The position numbers and the translations under genes were made by a program. The notes under the pieces are model-generated. The model was not told where the DNA came from and did no database searches. It saw only the letters and a list, made by a program, of their open reading frames with translations. A stretch of DNA of 64,000 nucleotides from Candidatus Eiseniibacteriota bacterium (GTDB lineage Bacteria > Eisenbacteria > RBG-16-71-46 > JABDJR01), in assembly GCA_963783375.1 (NCBI GenBank), contig CAWANH010000029.1, forward strand, positions 868,981 to 932,980. Reading direction: 5' to 3'. This document shows positions 4,113 to 60,848 of the stretch, piece by piece; position 1 is the first letter of the stretch; each line of letters opens with the position of its first letter.

Positions 4113-6236
4113 TCATTGGTTCGCCGGCAATGCGCCCGCTTCCGCGCCGGCGGGCACCGGCCCCCGGTCGCAGTAGATGCCACCCCGGCGCTCGCCGAAG
4201 CCTCGGGGCGGAGCGTACCGCCCTTCCGCCAGCTTTCGCGCCAGGTCCGAGAGCCGGTCCCCCGACCCGAAGGTTCCCGAGAGGTCCACGAAGATCGCCA
4301 CCCCCGGGGCGCGGCGGCGCCAAAGGTTTCCGCCGCGGCTGTCCACGAACCCGATCGAACGGTTGAGTTCATTCTCTTCGTAGAGTCCGAAGCCGTTCTC
4401 CCCGGCCAGATCCACGAACCAACCCGCTCCCTGGCGGAGGCTCACGCCCAGGGACGACCCTCGGCCGGGGTTGTACGTGTCCGCCCCCTCGGCGTCCAGG
4501 AATATGCCCAGACCCAGATCGTCGCCGAATCCCAGGCCCCAGTTGGCCAGGTAATAGTCCGCCCCGGTAAGGTTCACGAGGATCCCCGCCCCCATCCTCT
4601 CCCCGCACCCCATCCCGCGCCCGGCGGCGATAGAGCTATCTCGCCCGGCGAGGTCCACCAGCGCCCCCAGGCCGAAGTCGCGCCCGAAACCCTGCACACC
4701 GTACCCGGCCTCGTAGGTGTCGTCGCCGGCCGCGTCCACCAGGAACCCCAGCCCCCCGGCGGGAAAGGGCCCGATCGCCGCCGCCGCCCCCTGGACCGCC
4801 ATTTCGGTTGTGTCGCCCCGGGTGCTCCAGGGGAACTCCTTCAACCTCCCAACCCAGTAGCGGTCTCTCCCCCCCAGGTCCAACAGCAACCCCAGCCCCC
4901 GCCATCCGCCGAACCCCTGGCCCATGCCGAATCCGTTGACCGGCTCGTCTCCGGTGATCTCGAAGCGGTCGTTCCCGGCCCGGTCCAGGAGGATCCCCAT
5001 GCCGTAGACCGCCGCCCCCTGGGAGAGCCACTGGCCGCGATACAAATCATCCCCCCCGTCGTCCTCGATCCAGCCCACCCCGCCGAAGCCGAATCCCGAG
5101 CCCCAGGCCGTGGCCTCGTAGACGTCGTCGCCGGCCCCGAGGTCCACCACCGCCGCGTACCCCAGGATCGCGCCTCCCGGGCCCGCCCGCCCCGAGTCCG
5201 CGGCGGCGTAGCGGTCGTTTCCGCCGAGGTCCACCACCACCGACGCCGGTTCGTCCCCCGAAGCGGACCCCGGACCCTCGTAGACATCGTCACCGCCGAG
5301 GTCCAGCACCAGGAGGTAGCTTCCGTGGTAGCGGTTGGCGCCCGCTCCCCCCACCGCGACCCGCCCGAGGGGCGAGGCCCAGTCGAACTGGAACTCGCTC
5401 TCCGCCGCGGGGAGCGCGGCCAGGGCGGCCGACGCGGTGTCCACCTCCCCCGCCAATCGCACCGCCCCGCGAGTGAGCGCGCGAAGATCCAGGCTCGAAA
5501 GCTCCCGCTCGAGTTCCCGGGTGTCATCCTCCGCGGTCTCATCCCCCTGGACCACCACCCCCCGGAGCGCCGCCGCGGTCCGTTTCCCCTTCGCCCCGAA
5601 GATCCCGCCCCGCTCCAGCTCCGAGCGGTCCACCTCGCGGTTCCGCCGCACCGCGGCCGCCCGGGAGGCCAGGATCAGCGCAGCCAGCTCCCGCGCGGTC
5701 GCCGGAGCCAGGGTCGCCTCCTCGCGGGTCACCGTCTCGCGGTCCTTTCCCTGGAACCGTTTCCCGGTCCCGGTGAAGAGCGCCTCCATGGCGGTGGTGA
5801 CCGGGGTGGATGACGACTGCACCGCCCGCTCCTCGGCCGCGAGCACGGTGTCGGGGAGCGGAGCCACCGAGACCTCGGGCTCCCCCAGGTCGGCGAGGAG
5901 CGCCATCACCCCACCCACCGACGACGCCCGCGCCAGCTCCCGGGCCGCCCCCTCCAGGGTGGCCGGGGCCCGGCCGGGCTCGTCCATCACGTACTTCTGG
6001 AAACGGAGCCGCCCCGCCGGCTCCCCCATCAGCGCCAGCGCGGCGGGGTCGACGCGGAACGCTTCGGGCGTCGTGCCGTCCAGCGCGGCCAGCGTGTCGA
6101 GCACCGCCCGAAGGCGCGGGGAGTCGCATACCAGCGTGTCGGCCGCGGTCCCCGGGGGGGAAGCCTCGGGGGCGCGGACGGCGGAGCCGAAGGCCAGCAC
6201 GAGCCCCAGGAAGACCGAAGCCGCTCCGCGACTCAA
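4113..6236 (-). CDS. secreted Gly/Asp-rich tandem-repeat protein with about 11 repeats of ~24 aa and core hhhD(L)xGxDxY; predicted beta-solenoid, function unknown
   Basis: A TTG start at 6236..6234 overlaps the plsC TGA (TTGA) and gives MSRGAASVFLGLVLAFGSAVRA|PEASP, a Sec signal peptide. An alpha-helical ~300-aa region follows. The repeats include LVLDLGGDDVYEG, VVDLGGNDRYAA, VVDLGAGDDVYEA, ILLDRAGNDRFEI, LLLDLGGRDRYWV, FLVDAAGDDTYEA, LVDLAGRDSS, LVNLTGADYY, FLDAEGADTYN and FVDLAGENGF. The upstream part of track ORF 4113..7016 lies out of frame over plsC. Confidence 0.6.
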   Translation of the reverse strand: MSRGAASVFLGLVLAFGSAVRAPEASPPGTAADTLVCDSPRLRAVLDTLAALDGTTPEAFRVDPAALALMGEPAGRLRFQKYVMDEPGRAPATLEGAARELARASSVGGVMALLADLGEPEVSVAPLPDTVLAAEERAVQSSSTPVTTAMEALFTGTGKRFQGKDRETVTREEATLAPATARELAALILASRAAAVRRNREVDRSELERGGIFGAKGKRTAAALRGVVVQGDETAEDDTRELERELSSLDLRALTRGAVRLAGEVDTASAALAALPAAESEFQFDWASPLGRVAVGGAGANRYHGSYLLVLDLGGDDVYEGPGSASGDEPASVVVDLGGNDRYAAADSGRAGPGGAILGYAAVVDLGAGDDVYEATAWGSGFGFGGVGWIEDDGGDDLYRGQWLSQGAAVYGMGILLDRAGNDRFEITGDEPVNGFGMGQGFGGWRGLGLLLDLGGRDRYWVGRLKEFPWSTRGDTTEMAVQGAAAAIGPFPAGGLGFLVDAAGDDTYEAGYGVQGFGRDFGLGALVDLAGRDSSIAAGRGMGCGERMGAGILVNLTGADYYLANWGLGFGDDLGLGIFLDAEGADTYNPGRGSSLGVSLRQGAGWFVDLAGENGFGLYEENELNRSIGFVDSRGGNLWRRRAPGVAIFVDLSGTFGSGDRLSDLARKLAEGRYAPPRGFGERRGGIYCDRGPVPAGAEAGALPANQ

Positions 6237-6979
6237 GACACCGGCTCCCGCGCCTGCGCTTCGGGAAGGCCGGAGAGGATCGCCTCGCGCACCCGGGCAG
6301 AGAGCGCGGGAATGTCCGCCCGGGTGAGCCCGGCGGTGGGAATGGGCGGGTGGATGATCACGGTGATCCGGCCCGTCCGCGGGAGAAGCTTCCGCTTCCC
6401 GAGGATCCGCCCGGTGTTCCGGATGGAGATCGGGAGGATGGGATAGCCGGTATCCACCGCCACGTAGAAGCCGCCCTTCTTGAACGGCAGGAGTCGCTGA
6501 TCGGGCGAGCGGGTTCCCTCGGGGAAGACGGCCAGGGCGATCCCCTTCCGCATGCGGCTCACCGCCTGGCGAAGCGCGGTCACCGCCTGCTCGCGGTTTC
6601 CCCGGTCCACCTTGATGTGGTGGGAGGCCCCCAGGGCCCAGCCCAGGAACGGCGCGCGCACCAGCTCCCGCTTGGCCACGAAACGGACGGAGAGGCCCTT
6701 CAGGGCCACCACCGTGGCCGGGATGTCCAGGTAGCTTCGATGGTCGGCCATCATCACGCAGGCCTGGCCGAGGGGGAGGTGCTCCCGGCCCTCGGTCCGA
6801 ACCGGGGCCAGGAAGCAGGCGAGCATGGTCCGGCTGTAGAGTTGCTGGGAGAACTCCATCCAAACCGCGTGGGGATCGAAGGGGGCGCCCACGAGATACA
6901 GGAGCCCGATGAGCATGCTCCAGATCGCCGCCCAGAAATAGGCCCACACCGCGAAGATCACCCGAGCCGCCACGTTCAT
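6233..6979 (-). CDS. plsC: 1-acyl-sn-glycerol-3-phosphate acyltransferase
   Basis: An N-terminal TM helix is present. The HxxxxD acyltransferase box (MADHRSYLDIPA) and FPEGTRS motif are typical of PlsC. The protein is 248 aa. Confidence 0.88.
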   Translation of the reverse strand: MNVAARVIFAVWAYFWAAIWSMLIGLLYLVGAPFDPHAVWMEFSQQLYSRTMLACFLAPVRTEGREHLPLGQACVMMADHRSYLDIPATVVALKGLSVRFVAKRELVRAPFLGWALGASHHIKVDRGNREQAVTALRQAVSRMRKGIALAVFPEGTRSPDQRLLPFKKGGFYVAVDTGYPILPISIRNTGRILGKRKLLPRTGRITVIIHPPIPTAGLTRADIPALSARVREAILSGLPEAQAREPVS

Positions 6980-9108: not shown

Positions 9109-10695
9109 TCAGGGCCGGAAGCGCTCGGTCACGTCCTCGTTGGTCCGGGGGAAGATGACCTTGACCTCCCCCCGCTTCAGCCGGGGGTCGTCCCGGACGT
9201 CGATCTGGAACTTGAACTTCTGCTCCAGCCGGGCCAGCCGGTCCGCGCTTTCCGCGAACAGGTGCTGGGCCATCTCCGGCGATACCCGAAGCTCGATCAT
9301 CTTCTCCTGGGTGTTGACCCCGATCCGGTTCAGCAGGCGCTCGACCTTGAGCGCCACCGACTCCAGGCTCAGGACCTTGCCCAGCCCGGCGCAGCAGATG
9401 CAGTCGTTGGAGTAGTAGTGGAGAAGGCTCGGGCGTTCCCGCTGACGGGTCATCTCCACCAGCCCCAGATCCGACACCGCGAAGGTCTTGGTGCGGCTCC
9501 GGTCCCGCTTGAGGTTCTTCCGGAGCTCCTCCAGGACCGCCTTCTTGTTGGCCTCGGACTCCATGTCGATGAAGTCGAGGACGATGATCCCGCCGATGTC
9601 CCGGAGACGGAGCTGGCGGCCGATCTCCCGCGCCGCCTCGATGTTGGTCTTGAGGATGGTCTCTTCCTGGTTCTTCTTCCCCACGAACCGGCCGGTGTTG
9701 ACGTCGATGGCCACCAGGGCCTCGGCCTGATCGATCACGATGTAGCCGCCCCGCTTGAGCCACACCTTCCGCTCGAAGAGCTTGTCGATCTCGGATTCGA
9801 TGCGGAAGGCGTCGAAGATCGGGAGCTTCCCCCGGTACTGACGGACCCGGCTCACCAGGTCCGGAGAGACCGACTGGAGGTAGTCCCGCACCTCCTGGTA
9901 GACATCCGGCGAGTCCACCGCCACGTCGTCCACGTCCTCGGTGAGGATGTCGCGAATGAGCCCGGTGGCCAGGGAGAGTTCGCGGTGAATGAGGGCGGGA
10001 GACGGCGCCGCCGCGCACCGCCGCTCGATCTTCTTCCACTGCTTGACCAGGTACCCCACGTCCTCCCGGAACTCCTCCCGGGAGCGCCCCTCCCCCGCCG
10101 TCCGCACGATGAGGCCCGCGTTCTTGGGGCGGATGTCCTTCAGGATCTTCTTCAGGCGGTACCGCTCGTCCCGGCTGGGGATCTTGCGGGAAACCCCGAT
10201 GTGGTCGGCGCCGGGCATGAACACCACGTAGCGGCCGGGGAGGCTCACCTGCTGGCTCACCCGGGGGCCCTTGGTGGAGATGGGCTCCTTGGTGACCTGG
10301 ACCACGACCTCCTGGGATTTCTGGAGATGGTCCTCGATCTTGGGGGCGCTTTCGCGCCGGGGCTTTCGACGGGGGGATCGTCCCCCGCGGCCGCCGCGGG
10401 CCGGCGCTCCTCCTCCGCTCTCCGGCTCGTCGTCGTCGTCGAGGAGATCCACGTCGCCCCCCACCAGGGAGGCGGCGAGGTCGGAGGCGTGGAGAAACGC
10501 GGTCTTGGCCAGGCCGATCTCCACGAAGGCGGCCTGCATGCCGGGAAGGACGGCGTTCACCTTCCCCTTGTAGATGTCCCCCACGATGCGGCGGTCATCG
10601 GGCCGCTCCACCAGGAGCTCCACGAGCTGCTTGTCTTCCAGGATCGCCACCCGGGTTTCCTTCGGGTCGGCGTTGATAATGATCGACTTCTGCAT
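9109..10695 (-). CDS. rng: ribonuclease E/G family protein (Rne/Rng/CafA-like)
   Basis: The start at 10695 gives MQKSIIINADPKETRVAILEDKQLVELLVERPDDRRIVGDIYKGKVNAVLPGMQAAFVEIGLAKTAFLH (S1 domain). The catalytic DNase-I-like and RNase-H-like regions follow. The protein is 529 aa with an acidic/Arg-rich insertion. Confidence 0.85.
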   Translation of the reverse strand: MQKSIIINADPKETRVAILEDKQLVELLVERPDDRRIVGDIYKGKVNAVLPGMQAAFVEIGLAKTAFLHASDLAASLVGGDVDLLDDDDEPESGGGAPARGGRGGRSPRRKPRRESAPKIEDHLQKSQEVVVQVTKEPISTKGPRVSQQVSLPGRYVVFMPGADHIGVSRKIPSRDERYRLKKILKDIRPKNAGLIVRTAGEGRSREEFREDVGYLVKQWKKIERRCAAAPSPALIHRELSLATGLIRDILTEDVDDVAVDSPDVYQEVRDYLQSVSPDLVSRVRQYRGKLPIFDAFRIESEIDKLFERKVWLKRGGYIVIDQAEALVAIDVNTGRFVGKKNQEETILKTNIEAAREIGRQLRLRDIGGIIVLDFIDMESEANKKAVLEELRKNLKRDRSRTKTFAVSDLGLVEMTRQRERPSLLHYYSNDCICCAGLGKVLSLESVALKVERLLNRIGVNTQEKMIELRVSPEMAQHLFAESADRLARLEQKFKFQIDVRDDPRLKRGEVKVIFPRTNEDVTERFRP

Positions 10696-10702
10696 CGAAT
10701 CC

Positions 10703-13309
10703 TCATGAGACCGCGCCCCCCTTTCGGGCCGTTTGCTGCCACCACGCGAAACCGGACGCAACGACGGCGAGCGGGTCGAGAACCTGGTTCCGACCGGGAA
10801 TCATGAGACCGCTCCGGTGAACCCGCAGCAGCCGCTCGTCGAAGTCCGCCCAATTGCAGAGGACGGTGGTGAGAAGTTCGGGGCGCACGCTGTCGGGGCG
10901 GTTCAGGGCGAGGGTCAGACCCAACCGGGGGCCCCCTTCCTCTCCGCGCTCGACCACGGCCCGAATCAGGGACGGTCTGGCATTGAATGTCCGTGAATCC
11001 TCGCCCCGCACCTTGGTCACCTCGATGACCTTCGCGGCCAGTGCCCGGTCCACGCTCTCGCGCAGCCGGGTCTCCAGCTCCCCGGGGGACATGCCCCCGA
11101 ATTGGTCCCGGACCAGGGTGGCGGGGAACGAAACTTCGTAAACTGCTATCTGGATCGCGCTGTTCAGCGAATCCGGCTCGGTGCGAATGGGGGCCTGTGC
11201 CGTCACCTGGAGCCCGGCGGGAAGCGCCTGATTGAAAAGGGTGACAAAGGACTCCGGCACATCCCGGGCGAAGGCGACGTCGAAGTATTCCGCGTCGCTG
11301 GTCATGCCGAGGGGTAGGGGGGGACCGAAGGAGAGCTTCGGCCTCCGTCCCTTGCCCTGGGACACGGCCAGCGGAAGCTGGGTCCGCCTAAACGCACGCT
11401 CAAGAGAGCGGGTCACATCCAGATGGGCGGTGAACCGCGCGGGTTCGCCTTTGGAGAAGCGCAGGCGGTATCTCTCCGCCTGACGGGCTTCCCGCCCTCT
11501 GCCCGCCCGCCGGGGACGCCGGCCCGCCGTCCAGGCGGGCGCGTCGAACCCCGGGGTGGACGCGCCGGCGCCGGTGGACCCGGCCCGGGCGTCCGTCCGC
11601 TTCGAGGATTCCCCTCCCCCGTTACCGAGGGGCGGGGACTCGAGCACGACGTGAGACCAGGGAGTAGGTTGGAGGTCGTCGGGAGGAAAGCCGGCGACCC
11701 CGAGGGCGGTCATCGCCTCTTCCCACCGCGACGCCGAGAACGCGTCGGGATCGGACTGGCGGCGCGCCCCCTGGCGCGACACCTGATCCAACACCGCGGC
11801 CGCCCGTTCGTCGCTCCGGAGGAGCAACGCCTCCACCCGGGCCGCCCGGGGGGAGCGAACGGAGACCTTGACCTTCCGCCGCGCCAGGCGGCGGCGCCAT
11901 CCTTCGACGACGGCCAGGCATGCGTCCTCGTCGGTGGAAGCCTCCAACTCCCACCGGGTGTGCGGGCGGGGAACGAAGGGAACGACCTCCACGCTCAGCC
12001 GCGGGGCGCCGCCCTGCGGCGTCCGAATGGACTGAATCGCTTCCATCGTCTCCAACCATTCCTCGCGATCGTCCTCGGTCTCCCCGGGAAGGCCCAGGAG
12101 GACCTGGAGTCGGATGGCCGACCACCCGCCCCGCCACGCGGTCTGGACGGCCTCGAACAGCCGCTCCTTGGTGAGCGGCCGGCCGATCATCTCGCGGAGA
12201 CGGGCGGAGGGAGCCATGGGCTCGAACGTGAACCGGGCGCGGCGCCCCTTGCGAAGCTCGCGGGCCAGGGCGGGAGCCACCCGGGTCGGGTCCACGTCTT
12301 CCAGCCGGAACTGGACGCCGTACGGTCCAAACCTCTGGTTCATCGCTTCGAGGAGCGGCACGATCTCGGGATGGCGGCTCCCCGCCGCCGAGGCCAGAAC
12401 CACCGCTCCGTGCCCGCTCGCCGCCAGCGCGGCCTCGGTTTCGCGAAGCACGCGTTCCAACGAGCGCACGCGGAGCAAGGCGGGCGCCGAGGCCGGATCG
12501 TCCACCCCCCGGTGGCGGGCGATCTCCACCACCAGTCCCTCCGCTTCGGTTTCCGCGAAGGGGACGATGGGGGCATCGGAAATCGGGGGAAGGTGGGCGA
12601 GCCAGCGGGCGCGCACCGGGGCTCCGTCCCCGTTTCCGTTCCGGTGTTCGGCCGCCGAGGCCCCGGTCTTGATCTCCGGGACCAGGATCCCGTCCCGGCC
12701 CTCGAAGAGCGCCCGGAGTTCGCTCCGGGTGCGATCGCCGCGGCGGCGGAGTTCCCGCCCCACCTCGAGCAGATCCGCGGCGAAGGCCTCGGGATCCCCG
12801 ACCAGGAAGGCATCCACCCAGGGCGCGGCGGGCCGGGGGGTGAGCGAGAGTTCCCCCGCCATCACCACGAGGGGATCCCCGGCGGACCGGAGAGCCGAAC
12901 GGAGCTCCACCCCCGCCAGATCCAGCATGGCCGCCAGGTCGGGAAGGTCCAGCACGCCGTCGGGAAGGGCGATCAGAAGATCGTAGTCCGCCAGCGGGCG
13001 CCGGGCTCCCAATCCGAAGAGCGGCACCCCCTGGCGCCGGAGCTCCGCTTCGAAGTCCGGGGCGGGGGCGAACGCGAGGTCCACCAGCACCTGGTCGGGC
13101 TCTCCCGCACCCCGCAGCGCATCGAGCAAACCGGGCACGCGCGCCCGGCCCAGGCCGGACTCGAGGGGACCGGGATAGACCAGACAGACCCGCACGCCGG
13201 CTCGATCGAAGTCGGGAAGGCGGCCGTGGGCGAAAGGGTTTTGGTACCGGTTCGGCTTGGAGACCAGGGGGAGGACACATTCCTCCAACCGGTCCGTTAC
13301 GAGTTCCAT
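10703..13309 (-). CDS. radical-SAM-like protein (TIGR03960 family architecture) fused to a DUF2344/TIGR03936 domain; the canonical CX3CX2C Fe-S motif is absent
   Basis: The N-terminus (MELVTDRLEECVLPLVSKPNRYQNPF...VRVCLVYPGPLESGLG) matches the B12-binding-like start of TIGR03960. At the position where homologs carry ...EVFRGCTRGCRFCQAG, this protein reads ...VVEIARHRGVDDPASAP. It has only 4 Cys in total and none in a CxxxCxxC arrangement in any frame. The C-terminal third (RYRLRFSKGEPARFTAHLDVTRSLERAFRRTQLPLAVSQGKGRRPKLSFGPPLPLGMTSDAEY) matches DUF2344. Confidence 0.8.
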   Translation of the reverse strand: MELVTDRLEECVLPLVSKPNRYQNPFAHGRLPDFDRAGVRVCLVYPGPLESGLGRARVPGLLDALRGAGEPDQVLVDLAFAPAPDFEAELRRQGVPLFGLGARRPLADYDLLIALPDGVLDLPDLAAMLDLAGVELRSALRSAGDPLVVMAGELSLTPRPAAPWVDAFLVGDPEAFAADLLEVGRELRRRGDRTRSELRALFEGRDGILVPEIKTGASAAEHRNGNGDGAPVRARWLAHLPPISDAPIVPFAETEAEGLVVEIARHRGVDDPASAPALLRVRSLERVLRETEAALAASGHGAVVLASAAGSRHPEIVPLLEAMNQRFGPYGVQFRLEDVDPTRVAPALARELRKGRRARFTFEPMAPSARLREMIGRPLTKERLFEAVQTAWRGGWSAIRLQVLLGLPGETEDDREEWLETMEAIQSIRTPQGGAPRLSVEVVPFVPRPHTRWELEASTDEDACLAVVEGWRRRLARRKVKVSVRSPRAARVEALLLRSDERAAAVLDQVSRQGARRQSDPDAFSASRWEEAMTALGVAGFPPDDLQPTPWSHVVLESPPLGNGGGESSKRTDARAGSTGAGASTPGFDAPAWTAGRRPRRAGRGREARQAERYRLRFSKGEPARFTAHLDVTRSLERAFRRTQLPLAVSQGKGRRPKLSFGPPLPLGMTSDAEYFDVAFARDVPESFVTLFNQALPAGLQVTAQAPIRTEPDSLNSAIQIAVYEVSFPATLVRDQFGGMSPGELETRLRESVDRALAAKVIEVTKVRGEDSRTFNARPSLIRAVVERGEEGGPRLGLTLALNRPDSVRPELLTTVLCNWADFDERLLRVHRSGLMIPGRNQVLDPLAVVASGFAWWQQTARKGGAVS

Positions 13310-14460: not shown

Positions 14461-16080
14461 TCATTCCTTCCGGAGGAACACCACCACGTGGAAGTTCCGT
14501 TCCCTCCCCGCCACAAGCTCCATCAGCCGCTCGTAGTGCGGGTCGTTCCGGAGCAGGGTGTCGGGCACGTCTCCCCAGAGCCGCGGCCCGTAGTGGTTCT
14601 CCCACAGCACCACGCTCCCCGGCCGGGCCCCGGCCAGATTCGCCCGGGTGAGCTTCGGGGTCCGGGTGGCATCGTAGCGGTCGCGACCGGAGAAGAAGGC
14701 GAACCAGGGATGGTTGGTGTAGACCACGGCGTTCCCCAGGCCGAGCCGGTCGATCTGCTCGGTGGCCGCCTTCACCGCCGCGCGCTCGGGATCGAGGCCG
14801 ATGGGGCGGACGGTGAGAAGCGCCAGCGCCGCCGCTCCCACCCCCGCGGCTATTGCCACCCGGCGCGGGGGAACGAGCCGCGGCCGGAACAGCACGAGCA
14901 CCCCGCCCGCGGCGAGGAGCGCGGTCACCACCCAGCGCCATTCCACCCGTCCCGGCCCGATGAAGGACTCCCCCACCAGGACGTGCGAGCCGAAGAGCGC
15001 CACCACCGCGGTCCAGGCCAGCGCGAAACCGATTCGTAGTCCCAGGGGGCGCGGCCGAAGCCCGGACCAGTCCCCGGCCCCACGGGCGGCCACCAGCGCC
15101 ACCGCCGGGGCTACCACCGCGATGTGACGGAGAAACCCGACGCTCCGCCCGAAGGGAAGCTTGTCCCAGGCCAGGAGGCTCAGGAGAACCACGTCCACCA
15201 CCACCAGGACCACGGCCAGGACCGGAAGGCGCGCCGGAGCCTCGGACGAGGCGGGCGCCCGGTTCCCGGAGCGAAGCGCCGCCGCCAGGGCCCACAGGAA
15301 GAAGAAGAGGACCACCGCCCCGATCACCACCACCCCGTTCCGAACGTACTGGAGCGGCCCCAGGCTCACCAGCGGACGCTCGTTCCCCGCCCCCAGCACA
15401 TAGAGCGGCGACCCGTGGAGCGCCCAGCCCGCCACCGCCCAGACGGCGCCCGGGAAGAAGGCCCCCAGCCGCGCCTTCCATCCCACCCGGGGCCACGCCG
15501 CGGCCAGGACCACCAGGGTGAGCACGCCGGCCTCGATCCGGGCCAGGGGAAGGAGCCCGGCCAGAAGCACCGCCCGGTCGCGCCGCCCCGCGTACCACGC
15601 CCAGAGAAGGGCCGCCATCACCAGCGCGGCCATCGGCTCCGCCAATCCCCCGTAGGAGGTTTCGAGGACCAGCGGCTGGAAGAAGAAGAACGGCACCGCG
15701 AGCCAGGGGAAGGCCACCCCCGCCGCCTCGGCGGCCAGGCCGGCCAGGGCCGCCGCCCCCGCCACCGCCACCGCGGTGGTCGCCTCCACCCCCGCATAGC
15801 CGAAGAGGCGGGCGGGAAGCGCGAACAGCGCCAGGGGGACCGGCATCCCCCAGTCGTCGGCGAGGAGCGAGGGGTCCTTCCAGACCTGGCGGGCCATGTA
15901 GTAGCGATCGATGTCGTCGTCCTGGTAGGTGCCGGGGGAACGGGCGGCGTAGACCAGGGCCACGGCCAGGCAGAGAAGGGCGAGGGCGAGGATCGCGCGC
16001 CGGGACCGCCCGGAGCCGGCCTTCCGGCGCGTTCCGCTCCCGGACCGCGGCGCGCGCCGCCCGAGGCCCCGGTTCCCCAT
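14461..16080 (-). CDS. polytopic membrane protein, putative GT-C superfamily glycosyltransferase (ArnT/PMT-like)
   Basis: The protein is 539 aa with more than 10 predicted TM helices. Its N-terminal region (DDIDRYYMARQVWKDPSLLADDWGMPVPL) resembles GT39/GT83 family starts. The stop overlaps the rodA start. Confidence 0.65.
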   Translation of the reverse strand: MGNRGLGRRAPRSGSGTRRKAGSGRSRRAILALALLCLAVALVYAARSPGTYQDDDIDRYYMARQVWKDPSLLADDWGMPVPLALFALPARLFGYAGVEATTAVAVAGAAALAGLAAEAAGVAFPWLAVPFFFFQPLVLETSYGGLAEPMAALVMAALLWAWYAGRRDRAVLLAGLLPLARIEAGVLTLVVLAAAWPRVGWKARLGAFFPGAVWAVAGWALHGSPLYVLGAGNERPLVSLGPLQYVRNGVVVIGAVVLFFFLWALAAALRSGNRAPASSEAPARLPVLAVVLVVVDVVLLSLLAWDKLPFGRSVGFLRHIAVVAPAVALVAARGAGDWSGLRPRPLGLRIGFALAWTAVVALFGSHVLVGESFIGPGRVEWRWVVTALLAAGGVLVLFRPRLVPPRRVAIAAGVGAAALALLTVRPIGLDPERAAVKAATEQIDRLGLGNAVVYTNHPWFAFFSGRDRYDATRTPKLTRANLAGARPGSVVLWENHYGPRLWGDVPDTLLRNDPHYERLMELVAGRERNFHVVVFLRKE

Positions 16081-16083
16081 CTC

Positions 16084-17307
16084 CTACACCTCGTTCCGGC
16101 GCAGGGAGACGTTCAAGATGAACCCCATGAGGGCGAGGGTGGTGACCAGGAAGGTGCCTCCGTAGGAGAGAAAGGGCAGGGGAAGGCCGGTCACCGGGGC
16201 CAGACCCAGGGTCATGCTCACGTTCACCGCCACGTGGAAGACCAGCATGCCGCAGATCCCCACCACCAGGGTGCTCCCGAACCGGCTTCGCGCCTTGAGC
16301 GCGATCCCCAGTCCCCGGTGGACCAGCACCCCGAACAGGAGGAGCACCACCCCGCAGCCGACAAATCCCCATTCCTCGCCAAGAACGGAAAAAATAAAGT
16401 CGGTATGGTTTTGAGGAAGGAAGCCCAGGCCCTTCTGGGTCCCCTTCAGGTATCCCTGCCCGGTCACCCCTCCCGATCCGATGGCGATCTTGGACTGGAT
16501 GACCTGGTAGCCCGACTGGGCCCGGTCCTGCTCGGGGTTCAGGAAGGTCACCACCCGCTGGCGCTGGTAGGGCTTGAGCGAGTTCCACAGGATCGGGGTG
16601 GCCGCGGCCACCGCCATGTTGATGGCCAGCACCGCCACCACCAGGTTCCGCCGGGCCCGGGAGAGGAGGAGGATCACCCCCACCACCAGGAGGTACAGGA
16701 GCCAGGCCCAGAGATTCAGGGAGAGGATCGCGCTCAGGAGCGGCGATCCCAATACCAGGATCACCCCGATGGGGAGCCCGGCCCAGAACAGCATGGGGAC
16801 CACCGCGGCGGGGATGCTGAGCGAGGTCCCGAGATCGGGCTCGATGAGGATGAGCACGAAGGGAACGGCGGCGGCGGCGAGAACCGGCGCCATGTGGGTG
16901 AGCCGGCGGAGGTCGAAGCGGGGCCGGCTCAGCATGCGGGCCACGAGGAGAATGGTGGCCAGCTTGGCCAGCTCCGAGGGCTGGAACTGGAATCCCGCGA
17001 GGGAGAGCCAGCGGCGCGCCCCCAGGCTCGTCACCCCCACGACCGGCACCGCCAGAAGCAACACCAGGGACACCGCGTAGAAGAAGTGGCTGTATTCCTC
17101 CCAGAACCGGAACGGGATGGCGGTGACGACAAACAGGACGAGGAGCCCCATACCGAGCCAGGTGATCTGATGGCCGAAGAGCGCCGACTTGGCCGGGCTC
17201 ATCGGCACCTGGCTGGCCGAATACACCAGGACCAGCCCGATGACCAGGAGGGTGGCCATGGTGATGACGAAGCCCCAGTCCATCTGGCGAACCGCGCGGC
17301 GGTTCAT
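16084..17307 (-). CDS. rodA: rod shape-determining protein RodA (SEDS family peptidoglycan glycosyltransferase)
   Basis: Start at 17307 gives MNRRAVRQMDWGFVITMATLLVIGLVLVYSAS.... The conserved SEDS C-terminus (GLPLPFLSYGGTFLV) is present. The gene is immediately downstream of mrdA. Confidence 0.88.
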   Translation of the reverse strand: MNRRAVRQMDWGFVITMATLLVIGLVLVYSASQVPMSPAKSALFGHQITWLGMGLLVLFVVTAIPFRFWEEYSHFFYAVSLVLLLAVPVVGVTSLGARRWLSLAGFQFQPSELAKLATILLVARMLSRPRFDLRRLTHMAPVLAAAAVPFVLILIEPDLGTSLSIPAAVVPMLFWAGLPIGVILVLGSPLLSAILSLNLWAWLLYLLVVGVILLLSRARRNLVVAVLAINMAVAAATPILWNSLKPYQRQRVVTFLNPEQDRAQSGYQVIQSKIAIGSGGVTGQGYLKGTQKGLGFLPQNHTDFIFSVLGEEWGFVGCGVVLLLFGVLVHRGLGIALKARSRFGSTLVVGICGMLVFHVAVNVSMTLGLAPVTGLPLPFLSYGGTFLVTTLALMGFILNVSLRRNEV

Positions 17308-17359
17308 CTCCGCCTCCCGCGCGCCGCCCGACCGGGGACGGCATCGAATCCGTGTCGCA

Positions 17360-19222
17360 TCAGTCGGTCTCCTGAACCCGCACCACCAGCGAGTCGTCCA
17401 CTCCGAAGTAGGCGGAAAGAATGCGCTGGGCCACCGGCGCGGCCACCGAACCTCCGTGGCCCCGGTTCTCCAGGACCACCGCCACCGCCACCTGGGGATC
17501 GTCGGCGGGAGCATAGGCGAGGAAGAGGGCATGGTCGAAACCGGGGTTCTGGGCCGTCCCCGTCTTCCCGGCCACGGTCTCCCCGGGAACGGCGGCGCTT
17601 CGCGCGGTTCCCCCCTCCACCGCCGCCCTCATCCCCTTGTGGACCTCGGCCACCGCGGCGGGGTCGAGCGGGATCTCGATGTAGCTGGGCGCCAGCGCCG
17701 GCGCGGGATAGCGGCGATCGCGGCGGTCCTCGCCCAGGGCCTTCACCAGGCGCGGCCGGGGGCGCCGCCCCCCGGTGGCCATGACCGCGATGTACTCGGC
17801 CAGCTCTATCGGCGTGGCCAGGACCTCCCCCTGCCCGATGATCAGGTTCAGGGCCACCCCGTGACTCCAGCCGCGCGTCCCGTAACGCCGGTCGAAATAC
17901 CGCGTGTCCGGGATCAGACCGGTGCGTTCGCCGGGGAGGTCGACTCCGGTGAGGTCGGCAAAGTGGAAGAGCTCCCCGTAGCGGGCGATCCCGTTCACCC
18001 CCAGACTCACCGCGAGCTGGTAGAAGTACACGTCGCAGGACTGGGCCATGGCCTCGACGTCGGTCAGGGCCCCGTGCCCCGCCCGCTTCCAGCACCGGAA
18101 GGTCCGGTTCCCGAAGCGGAACCCCCCGAAGCAGGGGCTCAGTTTCTGCCCCGGTTGGATGATCCCCTCGGCCAGGGCCGCGTACAGGGACAGGGGTTTG
18201 AACACCGAGCCCGGCGGGTACACCGACTGGACGGCGCGATTCAGGAGCGGGGCGCTGGGACGATTCAGGGCGTCCCAGGTCTCCTGGCTCAACGCTCCGG
18301 AAAACGTGTTGGGGTCGAACCCCGGGCGACTGGCCATGACCAGGACGTCCCCGTTCCGGACGTCCATGAGGACCGCCGCCCCCCGGACCTCGGGGGGATC
18401 GCCCCTCCCGTCGTAGCCCGCCCGATCCAGCGCGTTCTCGGCCACCCGCTGAATCTTGGAGTCCAGGGCGAGGGTCACGTCCCGACCGGGCTTGGGGGGG
18501 ATGGGCTGGGTGCTCAGGAACGCATCGCTCCGGCGCCCGGAGGCGTTCACCTCCACGTAGCGAATCCCGTCCTCGCCCCGGAGCTGGCTCTCGTACTCCT
18601 TCTCGATGCCGGTCTGCCCGATCAACGAGCCCGGCCGGTATTCCTGCCCCTGAAGGGTCTCCAGCTGCTTGTCCCCCACCTCGCCGGTGTATCCCAGAAC
18701 GTGGGCGGCCAGGGAGTCGGCGGGGTAGTACCGGATCGCCTCCACCTCCACCGAGACCCCGGGAAGTTCAGCCCGGTGCTCCTCGACCCGTGCCACCTGG
18801 GTCGTGTCGGCGCTTCGCACCAGCCGGACCGGGTTGTAGCTCGATACTCGCTCCCGCTTCACCACCTGCCGGTAGTGATCCGGGTCTTCCCCCACCAGAT
18901 CGGCCAGGCGGACCAGGGTGGAGTCGAGGCGGCCGGCATGATGGACGAACCCCTTGAAGTGGGGGTCGAAGGTGATGATGAACGAGGGGATCATGTCGGC
19001 CAGGACGACCCCGTTCCGATCGAGAATACGCCCTCTCGGGCCCGGCACGAACTCAGGCCGCCGCCAGTTCCGGAGCGAGAGGTCCCGGCTCTCCTGGGAT
19101 GAGAGCACCTGGAGCGAGGCGAGCCGGGCCAACAGCACCAGCATCACGGCCAGACCCACCAGGCGCAGGACCAGGGCCCGCTCCCGGCGGTCAGCCCCGC
19201 CTGACGAGTATCTTCCTCTCAT
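17360..19222 (-). CDS. mrdA: penicillin-binding protein 2 (peptidoglycan D,D-transpeptidase MrdA)
   Basis: Protein of 620 aa with an N-terminal TM anchor. The transpeptidase motifs STFK-like (SVFKP), SxN and KTG(T) are present (VAGKTGTAQ). It lies in the mreBCD-mrdA-rodA order. Confidence 0.9.
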   Translation of the reverse strand: MRGRYSSGGADRRERALVLRLVGLAVMLVLLARLASLQVLSSQESRDLSLRNWRRPEFVPGPRGRILDRNGVVLADMIPSFIITFDPHFKGFVHHAGRLDSTLVRLADLVGEDPDHYRQVVKRERVSSYNPVRLVRSADTTQVARVEEHRAELPGVSVEVEAIRYYPADSLAAHVLGYTGEVGDKQLETLQGQEYRPGSLIGQTGIEKEYESQLRGEDGIRYVEVNASGRRSDAFLSTQPIPPKPGRDVTLALDSKIQRVAENALDRAGYDGRGDPPEVRGAAVLMDVRNGDVLVMASRPGFDPNTFSGALSQETWDALNRPSAPLLNRAVQSVYPPGSVFKPLSLYAALAEGIIQPGQKLSPCFGGFRFGNRTFRCWKRAGHGALTDVEAMAQSCDVYFYQLAVSLGVNGIARYGELFHFADLTGVDLPGERTGLIPDTRYFDRRYGTRGWSHGVALNLIIGQGEVLATPIELAEYIAVMATGGRRPRPRLVKALGEDRRDRRYPAPALAPSYIEIPLDPAAVAEVHKGMRAAVEGGTARSAAVPGETVAGKTGTAQNPGFDHALFLAYAPADDPQVAVAVVLENRGHGGSVAAPVAQRILSAYFGVDDSLVVRVQETD

Positions 19223-19697
19223 GAAATTTCAATTGCCGGTGGGAAAACCGCTGCACCTCATGGAGCGCGGCGGGCACGAGCGCCGCGGTGAGCATCGAGG
19301 AGGGCAGGGTCACACGCGCCATGTAGGAGATCAGCCCGTCGATATCGCCTCCCCTCAGAAGAAGGTACACCAAAAGCCCCTGGCCGAGTCCAGCTACCAG
19401 GATCGCCAGGCCCTGGGTGAGTCCCGACTCGCGGTAGACGCTCCGTCCCAGGGAACCGACCGCCCATCCCACCAGGGCCAGGGAGAGCGCGCTCACCCCG
19501 ATCGGCGTCCCGTAGACCAGGTCGCGGAACGCGCCGAGAAGAAAGCCGGCGACCGCCCCCACCGGCGGGCGCCGGGCCAGGGCCAGGATGACCGTCATCC
19601 CGAGGAGAAAGTCGGGTTGGATGGTGAAGCGGCCGAAGAGCGCCAGCCGGAGCCCCTCCAGCGCCAGGGCCAGGGCGAGGACCACCAGGAAGGTCAA
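19191..19697 (-). CDS. mreD: rod shape-determining protein MreD
   Basis: Hydrophobic protein of 168 aa between mreC and mrdA, with typical MreD size and position. Confidence 0.8.
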   Translation of the reverse strand: MTFLVVLALALALEGLRLALFGRFTIQPDFLLGMTVILALARRPPVGAVAGFLLGAFRDLVYGTPIGVSALSLALVGWAVGSLGRSVYRESGLTQGLAILVAGLGQGLLVYLLLRGGDIDGLISYMARVTLPSSMLTAALVPAALHEVQRFSHRQLKFHERKILVRRG

Positions 19698-20587
19698 CCT
19701 CCGACCTCCGCCGAGTCCATCGGGGCCTCGCCGGGGAATTCCCCGGGCAGGAAGGGAGTCCCGGTCCCGGGTTGGGGGATGAGCACGAAGGTCTCCTCCA
19801 GGCGAAAGAACGACGCGAAGGGATCGAGCCGGATGTCCTTCAGGAGCCGCTCCGGCGAGTCCCGGACCTCGGCCACCCTTCCCACCGGAAGGCCGGCGGG
19901 GAACACCCCCCCCAGGCCGCTCGAGATTAGGGTGTCCCCCACCGCCACGTCGGACTGAAGGGGGGCCTTGGAGACGCGCAGCCTACCCTCCCCGGGGTCC
20001 CACTCCACGATTCCCAGGACCCGGCTCCGGGTGTCGCGGACCGAGACCGGGCTGTTCTCGTTCCGGAGGAGACGGATACGGGAGGTCCGGGACGACACCC
20101 TTTCGACCACCCCCACCAGTCCCTCCACCGACACCACCGCCTCGCCGGGAGCGACTCCCTGACGCGAGCCCACGTTGATCCAGGCCATCCCCCGGATCGG
20201 ATCGCGGTCGAGACCCACCACGCGGGCGGGAACCGTCCGATACCGGATGGGGGGCTCGTAGCCGAGCATGGCCCGGAGCCGGGTGTTCTCGCGCTCCGCC
20301 TCGCGGAGGCGGGCCAGTTCGAGCTCCAGCTCCATGACCCGCTTGGATGGACCGCGCGACCGGGTGAACAGGCGGCCGATCTTCAGCGGCTGGGACACCA
20401 CGGTCAGGATGCCGCCGGCGACCGCGTCCACCATCGGCACCAGGACCGGGGGACGCCGAAGCACGGAGACCGAGGTTCCGGCGACCAGGAGCGCCGCGGC
20501 CACCAGCACCACCACCAGGGCGCGGCGGCGGTCGAAGAAGGCCACCACCCGCTGGACCGCCTCGAAGATGATGCTCAGGAAAGGCAT
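19694..20587 (-). CDS. mreC: rod shape-determining protein MreC
   Basis: N-terminal TM segment; the coiled-coil (ELELELARLREAERENTRLRAML) and beta-rich C-terminus are typical of MreC. The gene is directly downstream of mreB. Confidence 0.85.
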   Translation of the reverse strand: MPFLSIIFEAVQRVVAFFDRRRALVVVLVAAALLVAGTSVSVLRRPPVLVPMVDAVAGGILTVVSQPLKIGRLFTRSRGPSKRVMELELELARLREAERENTRLRAMLGYEPPIRYRTVPARVVGLDRDPIRGMAWINVGSRQGVAPGEAVVSVEGLVGVVERVSSRTSRIRLLRNENSPVSVRDTRSRVLGIVEWDPGEGRLRVSKAPLQSDVAVGDTLISSGLGGVFPAGLPVGRVAEVRDSPERLLKDIRLDPFASFFRLEETFVLIPQPGTGTPFLPGEFPGEAPMDSAEVGG

Positions 20588-20611
20588 GGCGGGGGTCCGG
20601 GCTCGGGGGTC

Positions 20612-21646
20612 CTAATCACGGAACGACTTCATCAAGACCTTTTCGTAGAGTTCCAGGTTCTCCAGCACCTTACCGGTGCCCAGGACCACGCAGAGGAGGG
20701 CTTCATCGGCCACCGTGATCGGCAGGTTGGTGGCTTCGCGCAGGAGGACGTCGAGGCCCCGGAGGAGGCTGCCGCCCCCGGTCATGAGGATCCCCCGGTC
20801 CACGATATCCGCGGCCAGCTCCGGCGGCGTCTGCTCCAGGGACGTGCGGAGCGCCTCCACGATCTGGCTGATCGGCTCCTGGAGGGCCTCCCGGATCTCG
20901 GTGGAAGTGACCTTGATCGTCTTGGGGATGCCTCCGATCAGATCCCGCCCCTTGATCTCCATCTCCTCCTCCTGCTCCAGGGGGAAGGCGGATCCGATGC
21001 GGATCTTGATCTGCTCCGCGGTCTGGTCGCCGATCAGGAGGTTATAGGCGCGCTTGACGTACTGGACGATGGCCTCGTCCATCTTGTCCCCGCCCACCCG
21101 GACCGACGTGTCGTGGACGATGCCGTTCAGGGTCATCACCGCGATCTCGGTGGTTCCCCCCCCGATGTCGATGACCATGTTCCCGCAGGGCTTGTCCACC
21201 GGCAGACCGACCCCGATGGCCGCGGCGATGGGCTCGGCCACCAGGAGGACTTCCCGGGCCCCCGCGGCCTCGGCCGAGTCGCGCACCGCGCGCTTCTCCA
21301 CCTCGGTGATGCCGGAAGGGACGGCCACGATCACCCGCGGCCGGACCAGGAATTTCCGCTTCTGCACCCGCTGGATGAACTCCCGGATCATGTCCTCGGT
21401 CTTTTCGAAGTCGCTGATCACTCCGTTCTGGAGCGGGCGCACCGCGATGATCTCCTCGGGGGTGCGACCGAGCATGTCCTTGGCATCCTTGCCCACGGCC
21501 AGCACCTTGCCGGTGCCCCGGTCCACCGCCACCACCGAGGGCTCGTTCAGCACGATTCCCTTGCCCTTGACGTACACCAGGGTGTTGGCCGTGCCCAAAT
21601 CGATGGCCACATCGGTGGTGAAGAGGCTCATCACCCGATCGAACAT
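20612..21646 (-). CDS. mreB: rod shape-determining protein MreB (actin homolog)
   Basis: Start at 21646 gives MFDRVMSLFTTDVAIDLGTANTLVYVKGKGIVLNEPSVVAV... (344 aa). This is the canonical MreB. Track ORF 20612..22708 has a spurious N-terminal extension. Confidence 0.95.
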   Translation of the reverse strand: MFDRVMSLFTTDVAIDLGTANTLVYVKGKGIVLNEPSVVAVDRGTGKVLAVGKDAKDMLGRTPEEIIAVRPLQNGVISDFEKTEDMIREFIQRVQKRKFLVRPRVIVAVPSGITEVEKRAVRDSAEAAGAREVLLVAEPIAAAIGVGLPVDKPCGNMVIDIGGGTTEIAVMTLNGIVHDTSVRVGGDKMDEAIVQYVKRAYNLLIGDQTAEQIKIRIGSAFPLEQEEEMEIKGRDLIGGIPKTIKVTSTEIREALQEPISQIVEALRTSLEQTPPELAADIVDRGILMTGGGSLLRGLDVLLREATNLPITVADEALLCVVLGTGKVLENLELYEKVLMKSFRD

Positions 21647-21942
21647 GCCGTGTCGTGTCCTTTCAAATGACCTGGAAGGAGGGAGCCGGAGGCCTGTGGG
21701 GTGCCCTCCCCGCCTCCGGTGGCCCCCCGCGTGGAGCCGCAGGGACGCTAGCAAAGGGCTCGCCAAAGCCACAAGGGGGAAAGCGTTCCGGCGCCCGATC
21801 GGCGGAGCGAGTGAGGCCGGCGCCGCCCCCCCACCGGCGCCGGAGCCCCGGTGGGATATGAGAACGGGGGCCGCGCCTTCCGGCCCGGCCCCCGGTTCGA
21901 GGCGCCCGGGGCGGGGGATCTCCCCCCGCCTCCGGAACGGGA

Positions 21943-23130
21943 TCAGAAGTAGTAGGTCCCGGTGATCGAGGTGAGGGGATAGGCGCTCTTCCCGCTGAAG
22001 AGGTAGCCGCCGGTGAACACCGCGTCCGGGTTCACGGTGGCGTCCACGTCGAAGTGCTCGAAATGGAGTCCCATCCCGAACCCGAAGAAGTATCGGGAGG
22101 ACAGGGTGTCCCGGTCCGGAACGTTGTCGCCGGGAGCGTTCACCTTGGAGATGTCCACCGTCTTGGTGGCCCCGACCCGGCCGGTCAGCCAGGGATAGAC
22201 GTCGAACTCCAGGGCGATGAACATGGCCGGGAGGTCCCAGCGGGAGAACTCCGCGCTCATCTCGGCCCCGGTGTAGGTCTTCCGCTTCAGGTAGTTGGCC
22301 GCCAACCCCATGATGAGGAGATCGTTGCCGTTCACCTCGTGCTGGAGGGCGGCGCCCACGTTCAGACGGTTGCTGTAGGTGTCGTCCGCGTCCCCCTGGG
22401 CGGTGGCGTCGAGATGCTGGTAGATCACCACCGGGACCAGCATGTTCCCCTTGCTCATCTGGTTCATCATGCGGGCGCTCAGGCGGTAGGACAGGTTCCC
22501 CGCGTCCTCGGTGATGACGTCTCCGGCGGAGTTGGTCAGCATCCAGGTGATGGAGGTCAGGTCCACGGCCAGTTCGACGTTGTCGGTGGTGCCCACGTCG
22601 AACTTGAGCCCTCCGGTCACGGAGAGGGAGTTCGTTCCGCCCCCGGTGATCCCGCGGGTGAGCGGTTTCGACTCCGCATCGCCCTGCTTCACCGAGCTGT
22701 CCGTCCAACGCAGGGAGAGTCCGGTGGTCACCTTGCTGAAGTTCTTGGCCCAGGTGAGGTCGATGTCGCTCATCTCCGAGGGGATGGCGTTGTCCTGCTC
22801 GTCCCGGACGAAGAACCGGTCGTAGGTGGCGGCCTGGTTCAGGTAGACCGCAAAGACCCCGTAGGAGGTGTTGTCCCCGGCCCCGATCACCCCGACCGAG
22901 TGGTTCCCGAAGGTCTGTCCGCTGTTGGCGTCCGCGCTACCGAGCGATGCGGTCACCAGGTTCTGGTACCGTGCCGCCACCGTGGGGAAGACGCGGAAGT
23001 TGAAGTAGTCCTCCACGTACTCGCGCTGGATTCCCAGGGCGTCGAGACGGGCGTCGGACGCGAAGGAAACGCCGGCGGGGAGGACGAAGGCGAGAATCAG
23101 AAACGGCATGAGCCAACGGAACGATCTCAT
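21943..23130 (-). CDS. outer membrane beta-barrel protein (putative porin)
   Basis: Start at 23130 gives MRSFRWLMPFLILAFVLPAGVSFA|SD (signal peptide). The sequence is Gly/Ser/Thr-rich with an amphipathic beta pattern. The C-terminus is ...TGTYYF, the aromatic terminal residue typical of OMPs. Confidence 0.7.
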   Translation of the reverse strand: MRSFRWLMPFLILAFVLPAGVSFASDARLDALGIQREYVEDYFNFRVFPTVAARYQNLVTASLGSADANSGQTFGNHSVGVIGAGDNTSYGVFAVYLNQAATYDRFFVRDEQDNAIPSEMSDIDLTWAKNFSKVTTGLSLRWTDSSVKQGDAESKPLTRGITGGGTNSLSVTGGLKFDVGTTDNVELAVDLTSITWMLTNSAGDVITEDAGNLSYRLSARMMNQMSKGNMLVPVVIYQHLDATAQGDADDTYSNRLNVGAALQHEVNGNDLLIMGLAANYLKRKTYTGAEMSAEFSRWDLPAMFIALEFDVYPWLTGRVGATKTVDISKVNAPGDNVPDRDTLSSRYFFGFGMGLHFEHFDVDATVNPDAVFTGGYLFSGKSAYPLTSITGTYYF

Positions 23131-23290
23131 GTGTGCCCCCTTGTCAGATCCGTGACTTGCGCGGCCGTGCCGGCGGGTCGCGCGTTCCGCCGCTTCCCGA
23201 GGGAACCGGGTCTCACTGCGCTCGTGGATCACCGGGGCCGCTGATCCGGGGCAAATTACGACAGGCCAATGGGTTTGTCAATCCGCGGGA

Positions 23291-60770: not shown

Positions 60771-60848
60771 TGGTGTCCCCAACGGGATTTGAACCCGTGT
60801 CGCCAGCGTGAAAGGCTGGTGTCCTAGACCAGACTAGACGATGGGGAC
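60771..60848 (-). tRNA. tRNA-Glu (anticodon UUC), CCA encoded
   Basis: The reverse complement GTCCCCATCGTCTAGTCTGGTCTAGGACACCAGCCTTTCACGCTGGCGACACGGGTTCAAATCCCGTTGGGGACACCA folds with a 7-bp acceptor stem, a D stem GUCU/GGAC, an anticodon stem CCAGC/GCUGG with loop CUUUCAC, and a T arm ACGGG-UUCAAAU-CCCGU. Confidence 0.85.

Follow-up and report, generated by a model that had tools for sequence, protein, structure and literature searches.

A cluster motif is what defines radical S-adenosylmethionine (SAM) enzymes, and few deep lineages that selection has maintained without it have been documented. Here we describe such a lineage, starting from a gene in a 64,000-nucleotide (nt) stretch of DNA, hereafter the window, of Candidatus Eiseniibacteriota bacterium (assembly GCA_963783375.1, contig CAWANH010000029.1, positions 868,981–932,980 of the forward strand; G+C content about 70%). 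The open reading frame at 10703..13309 on the minus strand encodes 868 amino acids and a stop codon, and joins a TIGR03960-like module, from a family of B12-binding radical SAM proteins, to a DUF2344/TIGR03936 domain; the CX3CX2C motif is missing from the product, which is identical to the public protein P0001. What is new is the existence of a deep, maintained cluster-less lineage, evidence that it recurs elsewhere and a shift of evolutionary constraint onto the DUF2344 domain; the fusion itself and its gene neighbourhood are ordinary for the family.

The protein opens with a Rossmann-like domain (residues 1–240; 12590..13309), which contains the Pfam match Radical_SAM_N2 (residues 72–211) and corresponds to the domain that binds cobalamin in class-B radical SAM enzymes. 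A radical-SAM-like partial TIM barrel, here called the core, follows (residues 241–545; 11675..12589), recognised from Pfam, an AlphaFold2 model, structure matches and a count of signature residues. A linker (residues 546–610; 11480..11674), disordered in the model, has an isoelectric point (pI) of 11.7, with a conserved GRRPRRxGRGR at its end; the DUF2344/TIGR03936 domain (residues 611–868; 10706..11479; pI 9.9) completes the protein and, by hidden Markov model (HMM) and structure matches, has a TruA/Pus1-like pseudouridine-synthase fold. Among NCBIfam models, TIGR03960 covers residues 12–538 at 192.8 bits, far under its cut-off of 462.3, and TIGR03936 covers residues 613–835 at 133.7 bits, above its cut-off of 71.9. 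Pfam further reports Radical_SAM (residues 279–420), a match that begins at model position 25 and thus beyond the cysteine motif, and DUF2344 (PF10105; residues 613–809; 122 bits against a cut-off of 23.8); the Pfam B12-binding model (PF02310) finds no match in the protein. The protein fails the TIGR03960 cut-off, but belongs to the family by descent and by its conserved context, namely fusion to TIGR03936 and a position upstream of rng.

The former cluster motif

An earlier note, made from the DNA of the window alone, had described this 868-residue fusion as a radical SAM relative without CX3CX2C, and the alignments bear this out. The protein holds only four cysteines, at residues 11, 42, 464 and 818, none of them within the motif column, and alignment to TIGR03960 and TIGR03936, a check that the note had proposed, places no triad elsewhere. 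The segment that reads VEIxRGCxRGCRFCQAG in intact relatives aligns as VEIARH-RGVD-DPASAP in the window protein; its counterpart of E(I)xRGCxRGCRFCQAG is EIARHRGVDDPASAPA (residues 262–277; 12479..12526). Neither CX3CX2C nor an accepted variant of it is therefore present, although the partial (beta/alpha)6 TIM-barrel fold is. The motifs to which a SAM-contacting role can be assigned, by analogy with characterised enzymes, have fared little better: SLSxxD has become ASAAGSRH, and the APEAGSxRLR motif survives in degenerate form as TFEPMAPSARLR (residues 361–372; 12194..12229), in which APEAGS reads EPMAPS, the Glu and Gly are gone and RLR is kept. GLPGET alone is retained (residues 406–411; 12077..12094), with G406 and E410 invariant in cluster-less and intact forms alike. 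The second, C-terminal motif of the family, CxxCGxC, is absent from the fusion, and the linker replaces the region that bears it in most intact relatives. The only cysteines common in the clade to which the protein belongs are C42 (15 of 16 sequences) and C818 (12 of 16); with no three cysteines conserved, there is no evident substitute cluster site. As far as sequence can show, then, the fusion protein should be unable to bind a canonical [4Fe-4S] cluster.

The former motif contains a homopolymer, G6 on the coding strand (C6 on the plus strand, at about 12506–12511), so that a frameshift or sequencing error was considered as the source of the loss. A scan of all six frames between 10401 and 13600 returned no C...C..C, as the note had stated for the alternative frames. 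An independent assembly (locus L001) codes for an identical protein; in homologues at identities of 95%, 86% and down to 37% the same frame stays open across the segment, whose flanks are conserved, and 16 homologues over this range keep one open frame of about 800–870 amino acids without the motif. We rejected an error at the G6 run on these grounds, the clade-wide absence in the 16 homologues showing that the loss is no sequencing artefact, and agree with the note that no frameshift at the run rescues the motif.

Descent and recurrence of the cluster-less form

A search of approximately 5.8 billion proteins returned 57 relatives. The motif is missing from all 16 of those at 37–100% identity, which come from Candidatus Eisenbacteria metagenome-assembled genomes (MAGs) and metagenomes, and this answers the note's suggestion that orthologues be inspected. 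At 31% identity or less, 40 of 41 relatives carry C..GC(R/K)(F/Y)C. The exception, P0041, is an unfused 646-residue protein from a Coriobacteriales MAG, in which another residue stands in for the middle Cys of the triad (CGRRRRTC) and APEAGS has become APMAGS; we rejected it as an independent loss because 119 of its 119 nearest relatives keep the motif, which makes it a singleton and perhaps an assembly error. When a single genome was scanned for each species, the cluster-less form turned up at seven further loci (L003–L009), all of those with a taxonomic label being Eisenbacteria/Eiseniibacteriota MAGs; a more divergent lineage (L012) has it too. In NCBI the relatives are named only as 'TIGR03936 family' or 'DUF2344 domain-containing'.

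In a neighbour-joining tree the cluster-less Eisenbacteria genes form one clade, nested within the TIGR03960 family, whose sister group consists of Eisenbacteria genes that carry CP(R/V)(R/G/S)CRFC (L020, L026, L034 and L058). The rng gene directly follows the genes of this sister group and those of nearly every family member retrieved. Given the tree and this ancestral position beside rng, the cluster-less gene is the orthologue of the intact genes and not an extra copy, and the loss is ancient and inherited. The sister group keeps CX3CX2C and has lost the C-terminal CxxCGxC, with SLSxxD replaced by GGLMP, which suggests stepwise decay, the sister group looking like an intermediate stage. As a separate observation, the N-terminal domain and core of these four genes show lower identity than other intact pairs at equal rng identity.

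Beyond what the note had recorded, the fusion is common in the family, and the loss extends across the clade and occurs again in other lineages. Searched with a profile, 1.84 billion representative proteins yielded 14,933 family members at E ≤1e-3. Thirty-two of the best 150 lack the motif; 26 of these are full length, two of them differing by a single Cys, and the other six are fragments, of which most do not cover the motif region. Apart from the L012-like lineage and the Eisenbacteria clade, several other positions in the tree hold cluster-less forms, and one further cluster is annotated as candidate division Zixibacteria. Two variants from outside the Eisenbacteria clade were followed to their loci (L063, 6001–8472, P0160; L064, 6001–8454, P0105): one lies directly upstream of the 16S ribosomal RNA (rRNA) methyltransferase gene rsmB, not rng, and the other in the order mreBCD-pbp2-rodA-[gene]-rng-rplU-rpmA-obg-proB-proA. 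Hence, the loss looks recurrent and is not confined to the Eisenbacteria clade; at least three independent losses is a cautious estimate and not a count, because the list favours sequences close to the query profile and the deep branches of the tree have little resolution.

Signature residues, selection and fold

Positions with a conservation of 85% or more among 120 motif-bearing representatives were taken as the family signature, which was then compared with the cluster-less core clade. In residues 1–566, 45 signature positions are kept and 60 are lost, the latter including the Cys triad, G266, SLSxxD, PSxR, the Glu and Gly of APEAGS, NK, KLYFM and PKPHTPFQW; the window protein retains approximately 36–49% of this signature, against a mean of 93% in intact proteins. 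Still conserved in the cluster-less clade, invariantly or nearly so, are E262, R265, R372, G406, E410 and D414. The claim in the earlier note that the N-terminal domain and barrel are retained is thus correct for the folds, but about half of the signature residues are gone. In DUF2344 all 13 signature positions are kept. Every other cluster-less lineage shows the same division, keeping 36–66% of the N-domain and core signature and 77–100% of that of DUF2344, where intact proteins keep a mean of 93% and 92% respectively.

Ratios of nonsynonymous to synonymous substitution rates (dN/dS), estimated by the Nei–Gojobori method between the window gene and its relatives at 95% and 86% identity, are 0.17–0.27 for the N-terminal domain and core and 0.25–0.47, from small counts, for DUF2344. 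Most cluster-less pairs give 0.17–0.41 for the N-terminal domain and core, and unsaturated motif-bearing pairs give 0.10–0.19 for the core. Pseudogene decay was rejected on these ratios and on the confidently predicted fold. Divergence was also timed by how similar the neighbouring rng genes are. At an rng identity of 0.7–0.8, cluster-less pairs show identities of 0.34 in the N-terminal domain, 0.30 in the core and 0.57 in DUF2344, compared with 0.58, 0.63 and 0.50 in intact pairs; the other bins point in the same direction for the N-terminal domain and core, some of them with only one or two intact pairs, and in these bins DUF2344 is not consistently higher in cluster-less pairs. Within the cluster-less clade mean identity is 0.65 for DUF2344 and 0.40 for the core, an order that is reversed among intact representatives (0.28 and 0.42); DUF2344 is its most conserved part, and the N-terminal domain its fastest-evolving. 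From these substitution patterns, constraint on the former catalytic domains is relaxed about two-fold and not abolished, and DUF2344 is under full constraint; selection keeps the gene, and constraint has shifted onto its pseudouridine-synthase-like domain.

Synonymous divergence (dS) itself falls three- to five-fold from the 5′ to the 3′ end of the gene, being 0.48, 0.34 and 0.18 against L061 and 0.24, 0.10 and 0.04 against L003 for the N-terminal domain, core and DUF2344 respectively, a gradient for which recombination or messenger RNA constraint near the rng start is a possible cause.

From an alignment of 54 sequences, AlphaFold2 produced a model with a mean predicted local distance difference test score (pLDDT) of 87 and a predicted template modelling score of 0.88, and pLDDT exceeds 90 over both former catalytic domains; residues 215–228, 558–608 and 858–868 are disordered. 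A Foldseek search with the model agrees with the domain folds and places TsrM among the nearest structural relatives, and a profile search of PDB sequences matched MgmA, RimO and MiaB. The cobalamin-dependent methylases MgmA (PDB 9ccb), TsrM, CysS and TokK and the methylthiotransferases RimO and MiaB bind [4Fe-4S] through CX3CX2C, which the window protein cannot do, and identity to them is 10–18%.

DUF2344 belongs to the pseudouridine synthase clan according to Pfam (PMC7955657), and the fold of the domain in the model agrees: its element order, beta1-alpha1-beta2-loop-beta3, is that of TruA. The likeness to pseudouridine synthases is structural only, since profile comparison with Escherichia coli TruA gave no signal (hhalign probability 0.05), PF01416 found no match, and no sequence similarity to TruA, Pus1 or Pus3 is detectable. 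Between strands 2 and 3, at the topological position of the catalytic-Asp loop of TruA (motif GRTDxGVH), lies GPPLPLGM (residues 662–669; 11303..11326), placed from the secondary structure of the model and the alignment, with the register taken from the order of elements and not from residue-level superposition. The loop contains no Asp or Glu, which makes it unlikely that DUF2344 is an active pseudouridine synthase. Compared with its intact relatives the domain is here more conserved and carries a conserved C-terminal extension (…FDERLLRVHRSGLxIPG…GFAWW); R615, K620, R625, H629, R638 and R641 are conserved basic residues in it. Structural matches include the non-catalytic TruA-like proteins of mitoribosome assembly complexes (9hny_FB and 6sga_FB), which are a precedent for a silent pseudouridine-synthase fold in ribosome biogenesis.

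Gene neighbourhood and function

Downstream of the fusion, on the same strand, lie the RNase G/E-family gene rng (9109..10695; 528 amino acids, with S1, RNase_E_G and thioredoxin-like domains by Pfam), rplU for ribosomal protein L21 (8580..8891) and rpmA for ribosomal protein L27 (8282..8539), the order given in the earlier note. The rng ATG stands 7 nt after the fusion stop, whose TGA overlaps GAGGA, a Shine–Dalgarno sequence. Adjacency of the fusion and rng is conserved at almost all related loci, and an rng-upstream position, often followed by rplU-rpmA, is shared with the TIGR03960 family, as are domain order, fold and the DUF2344 fusion. Upstream of the fusion are a ComF-like gene, a gene for a 539-residue membrane protein and rodA-pbp2-mreD-mreC-mreB. 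The mreB-mreC-mreD-pbp2-rodA cluster (about 16084–21650, minus strand) is also linked to the operon in L061 and L064, an arrangement reminiscent of mreBCD-maf-rng in E. coli. Pfam matches nothing in the 539-residue multi-pass protein (14461–16080, minus strand), whose gene is flanked by rodA and the ComF-like gene, nor in the 540-residue product of the gene that holds its position in L061 and L062. Two other proteins encoded on the minus strand are without Pfam matches: one of 429 residues (21943–23232), upstream of mreB, and one of about 740 residues (4113 to about 6236), downstream of a PlsC-type acyltransferase (6233–6979), that contains many repeats resembling (V/L)(V/L)DLGGxDxY and has a 739-residue, Pfam-less counterpart at the same place in L061. 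The only Rfam match in the window was a single transfer RNA (tRNA) gene (60774–60848, minus strand), with no leader or riboswitch near the operon and no ribosomal-protein leader upstream of rplU.

The explanation that we favour, with a confidence that stands at an even balance, is that the fusion is a pseudoenzyme kept by selection, in which the pseudouridine-synthase-like domain does the work by binding RNA and, together with RNase G, takes part in the maturation of RNA or ribosomes. An Eisenbacteria ancestor possessed the usual fusion of a cobalamin-type radical SAM module (TIGR03960) with DUF2344/TIGR03936, directly upstream of rng-rplU-rpmA, and one sublineage then lost the CX3CX2C triad, APEAGS, SLSxxD and the C-terminal Cys motif. 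With these gone, formation of a 5′-deoxyadenosyl radical should not be possible, to the extent that sequence can show it, and in this respect the catalytic death proposed in the earlier note agrees with a triad absent across a deep clade and replaced by no other cysteines. The former catalytic domains remain as a scaffold that still folds, and purifying selection on them is relaxed but real, with DUF2344 and the arginine-rich linker still fully constrained. The basic pseudouridine-synthase-like domain may bind structured RNA, either an rRNA precursor or a tRNA, and the protein may, without catalysis, either chaperone RNA or act as an adaptor and hand substrate to the co-translated RNase G. Such a cluster-independent role would be one preserved from the intact family, which probably shares it. 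The note had likewise suggested repurposing as an RNA-binding protein or RNase E/G partner; given the fold and signature of DUF2344, the basic linker and the operon context, this is plausible.

Several points weigh against this explanation. In the literature searched we found no paper on the TIGR03960/DUF2344 family or its cluster-less members, save the Pfam clan placement of DUF2344, and no paper or experiment defining the function of intact TIGR03960/TIGR03936 proteins; RNA binding and partnership with RNase G, being drawn from fold and neighbourhood only, are therefore provisional. The invariant pocket residues (E262, R265, R372, G406 and E410) could mean that a ligand is still bound and that some non-radical chemistry persists. 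Values of dN/dS between 0.2 and 0.4 are fairly high, neighbour-joining phylogenies have weak deep resolution, and an intact paralogue may exist elsewhere in the genome, since the scan targeted DUF2344 and would miss an unfused copy.

Such a paralogue would be central to an alternative that we consider unlikely, in which the cluster-less protein is the RNA-binding regulatory or scaffold subunit of a heteromer and an intact TIGR03960-type partner encoded elsewhere supplies the chemistry. Pairs of pseudoenzyme and enzyme are common among RNA-modifying enzymes, the intact and cluster-less states both occur in the phylum, and the former catalytic domains are folded and under purifying selection, as a dimer interface would be; but the gene occupies the ancestral place of the orthologue, its N-terminal domain and core have about double the evolutionary rate of those in intact proteins, and no genome yielded two loci in the DUF2344-targeted scan. 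The conserved pocket, in which D414 joins the residues just named, lends itself instead to a non-radical enzyme, in which the barrel and Rossmann domain would bind SAM, cobalamin or both and carry out polar methyl transfer or another RNA reaction free of the cluster. TsrM, among the nearest structural relatives, does methylate without radical initiation, yet still requires its cluster, and the window protein has lost the Glu and Gly of APEAGS, SLSxxD and, in all, 60 of 126 signature positions in residues 1–566, while its N-terminal domain evolves fastest and gives no PF02310 match; we think this quite improbable. Least credible, to the point of being negligible, is that the G6 run conceals the motif through a frameshift or that the N-terminal part is a pseudogene remnant beside a functional DUF2344. 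The run does fall exactly in the former motif, and the N-terminal domain and core do evolve faster than in intact relatives, but against this stand the identical protein of the independent assembly, the 16 homologues with open frames, the absence of the motif from every frame, dN/dS well below one in every domain and the pLDDT above 90 over the former catalytic domains.

Pseudoenzymes in general are a familiar phenomenon, and the value of the present case is as a handle on an uncharacterised family, whose intact form is widespread, occurs in cultivable species such as Collinsella and belongs to a ribosome-related neighbourhood (rng-rplU-rpmA-obg) that is among the most conserved. Current annotation either labels the proteins by their C-terminal domain only or, through Pfam, as radical SAM, and both are misleading. 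As natural 'cysteine-less mutants', the cluster-less proteins point to the pseudouridine-synthase-like domain as the indispensable part and to some function that survives without radical chemistry. We would extend this to the whole family only tentatively, as something possible and rather less than probable: TIGR03960–DUF2344 proteins may have a second, radical-independent function, in RNA chaperoning or the presentation of substrate to RNase G during ribosome biogenesis, which suffices to keep the gene, so that Eisenbacteria, Zixibacteria and further uncultured lineages could each have given up radical chemistry; what remains would be a class of non-enzymatic, radical-SAM-derived factors of ribosome or RNA maturation, built on a silent pseudouridine-synthase fold.

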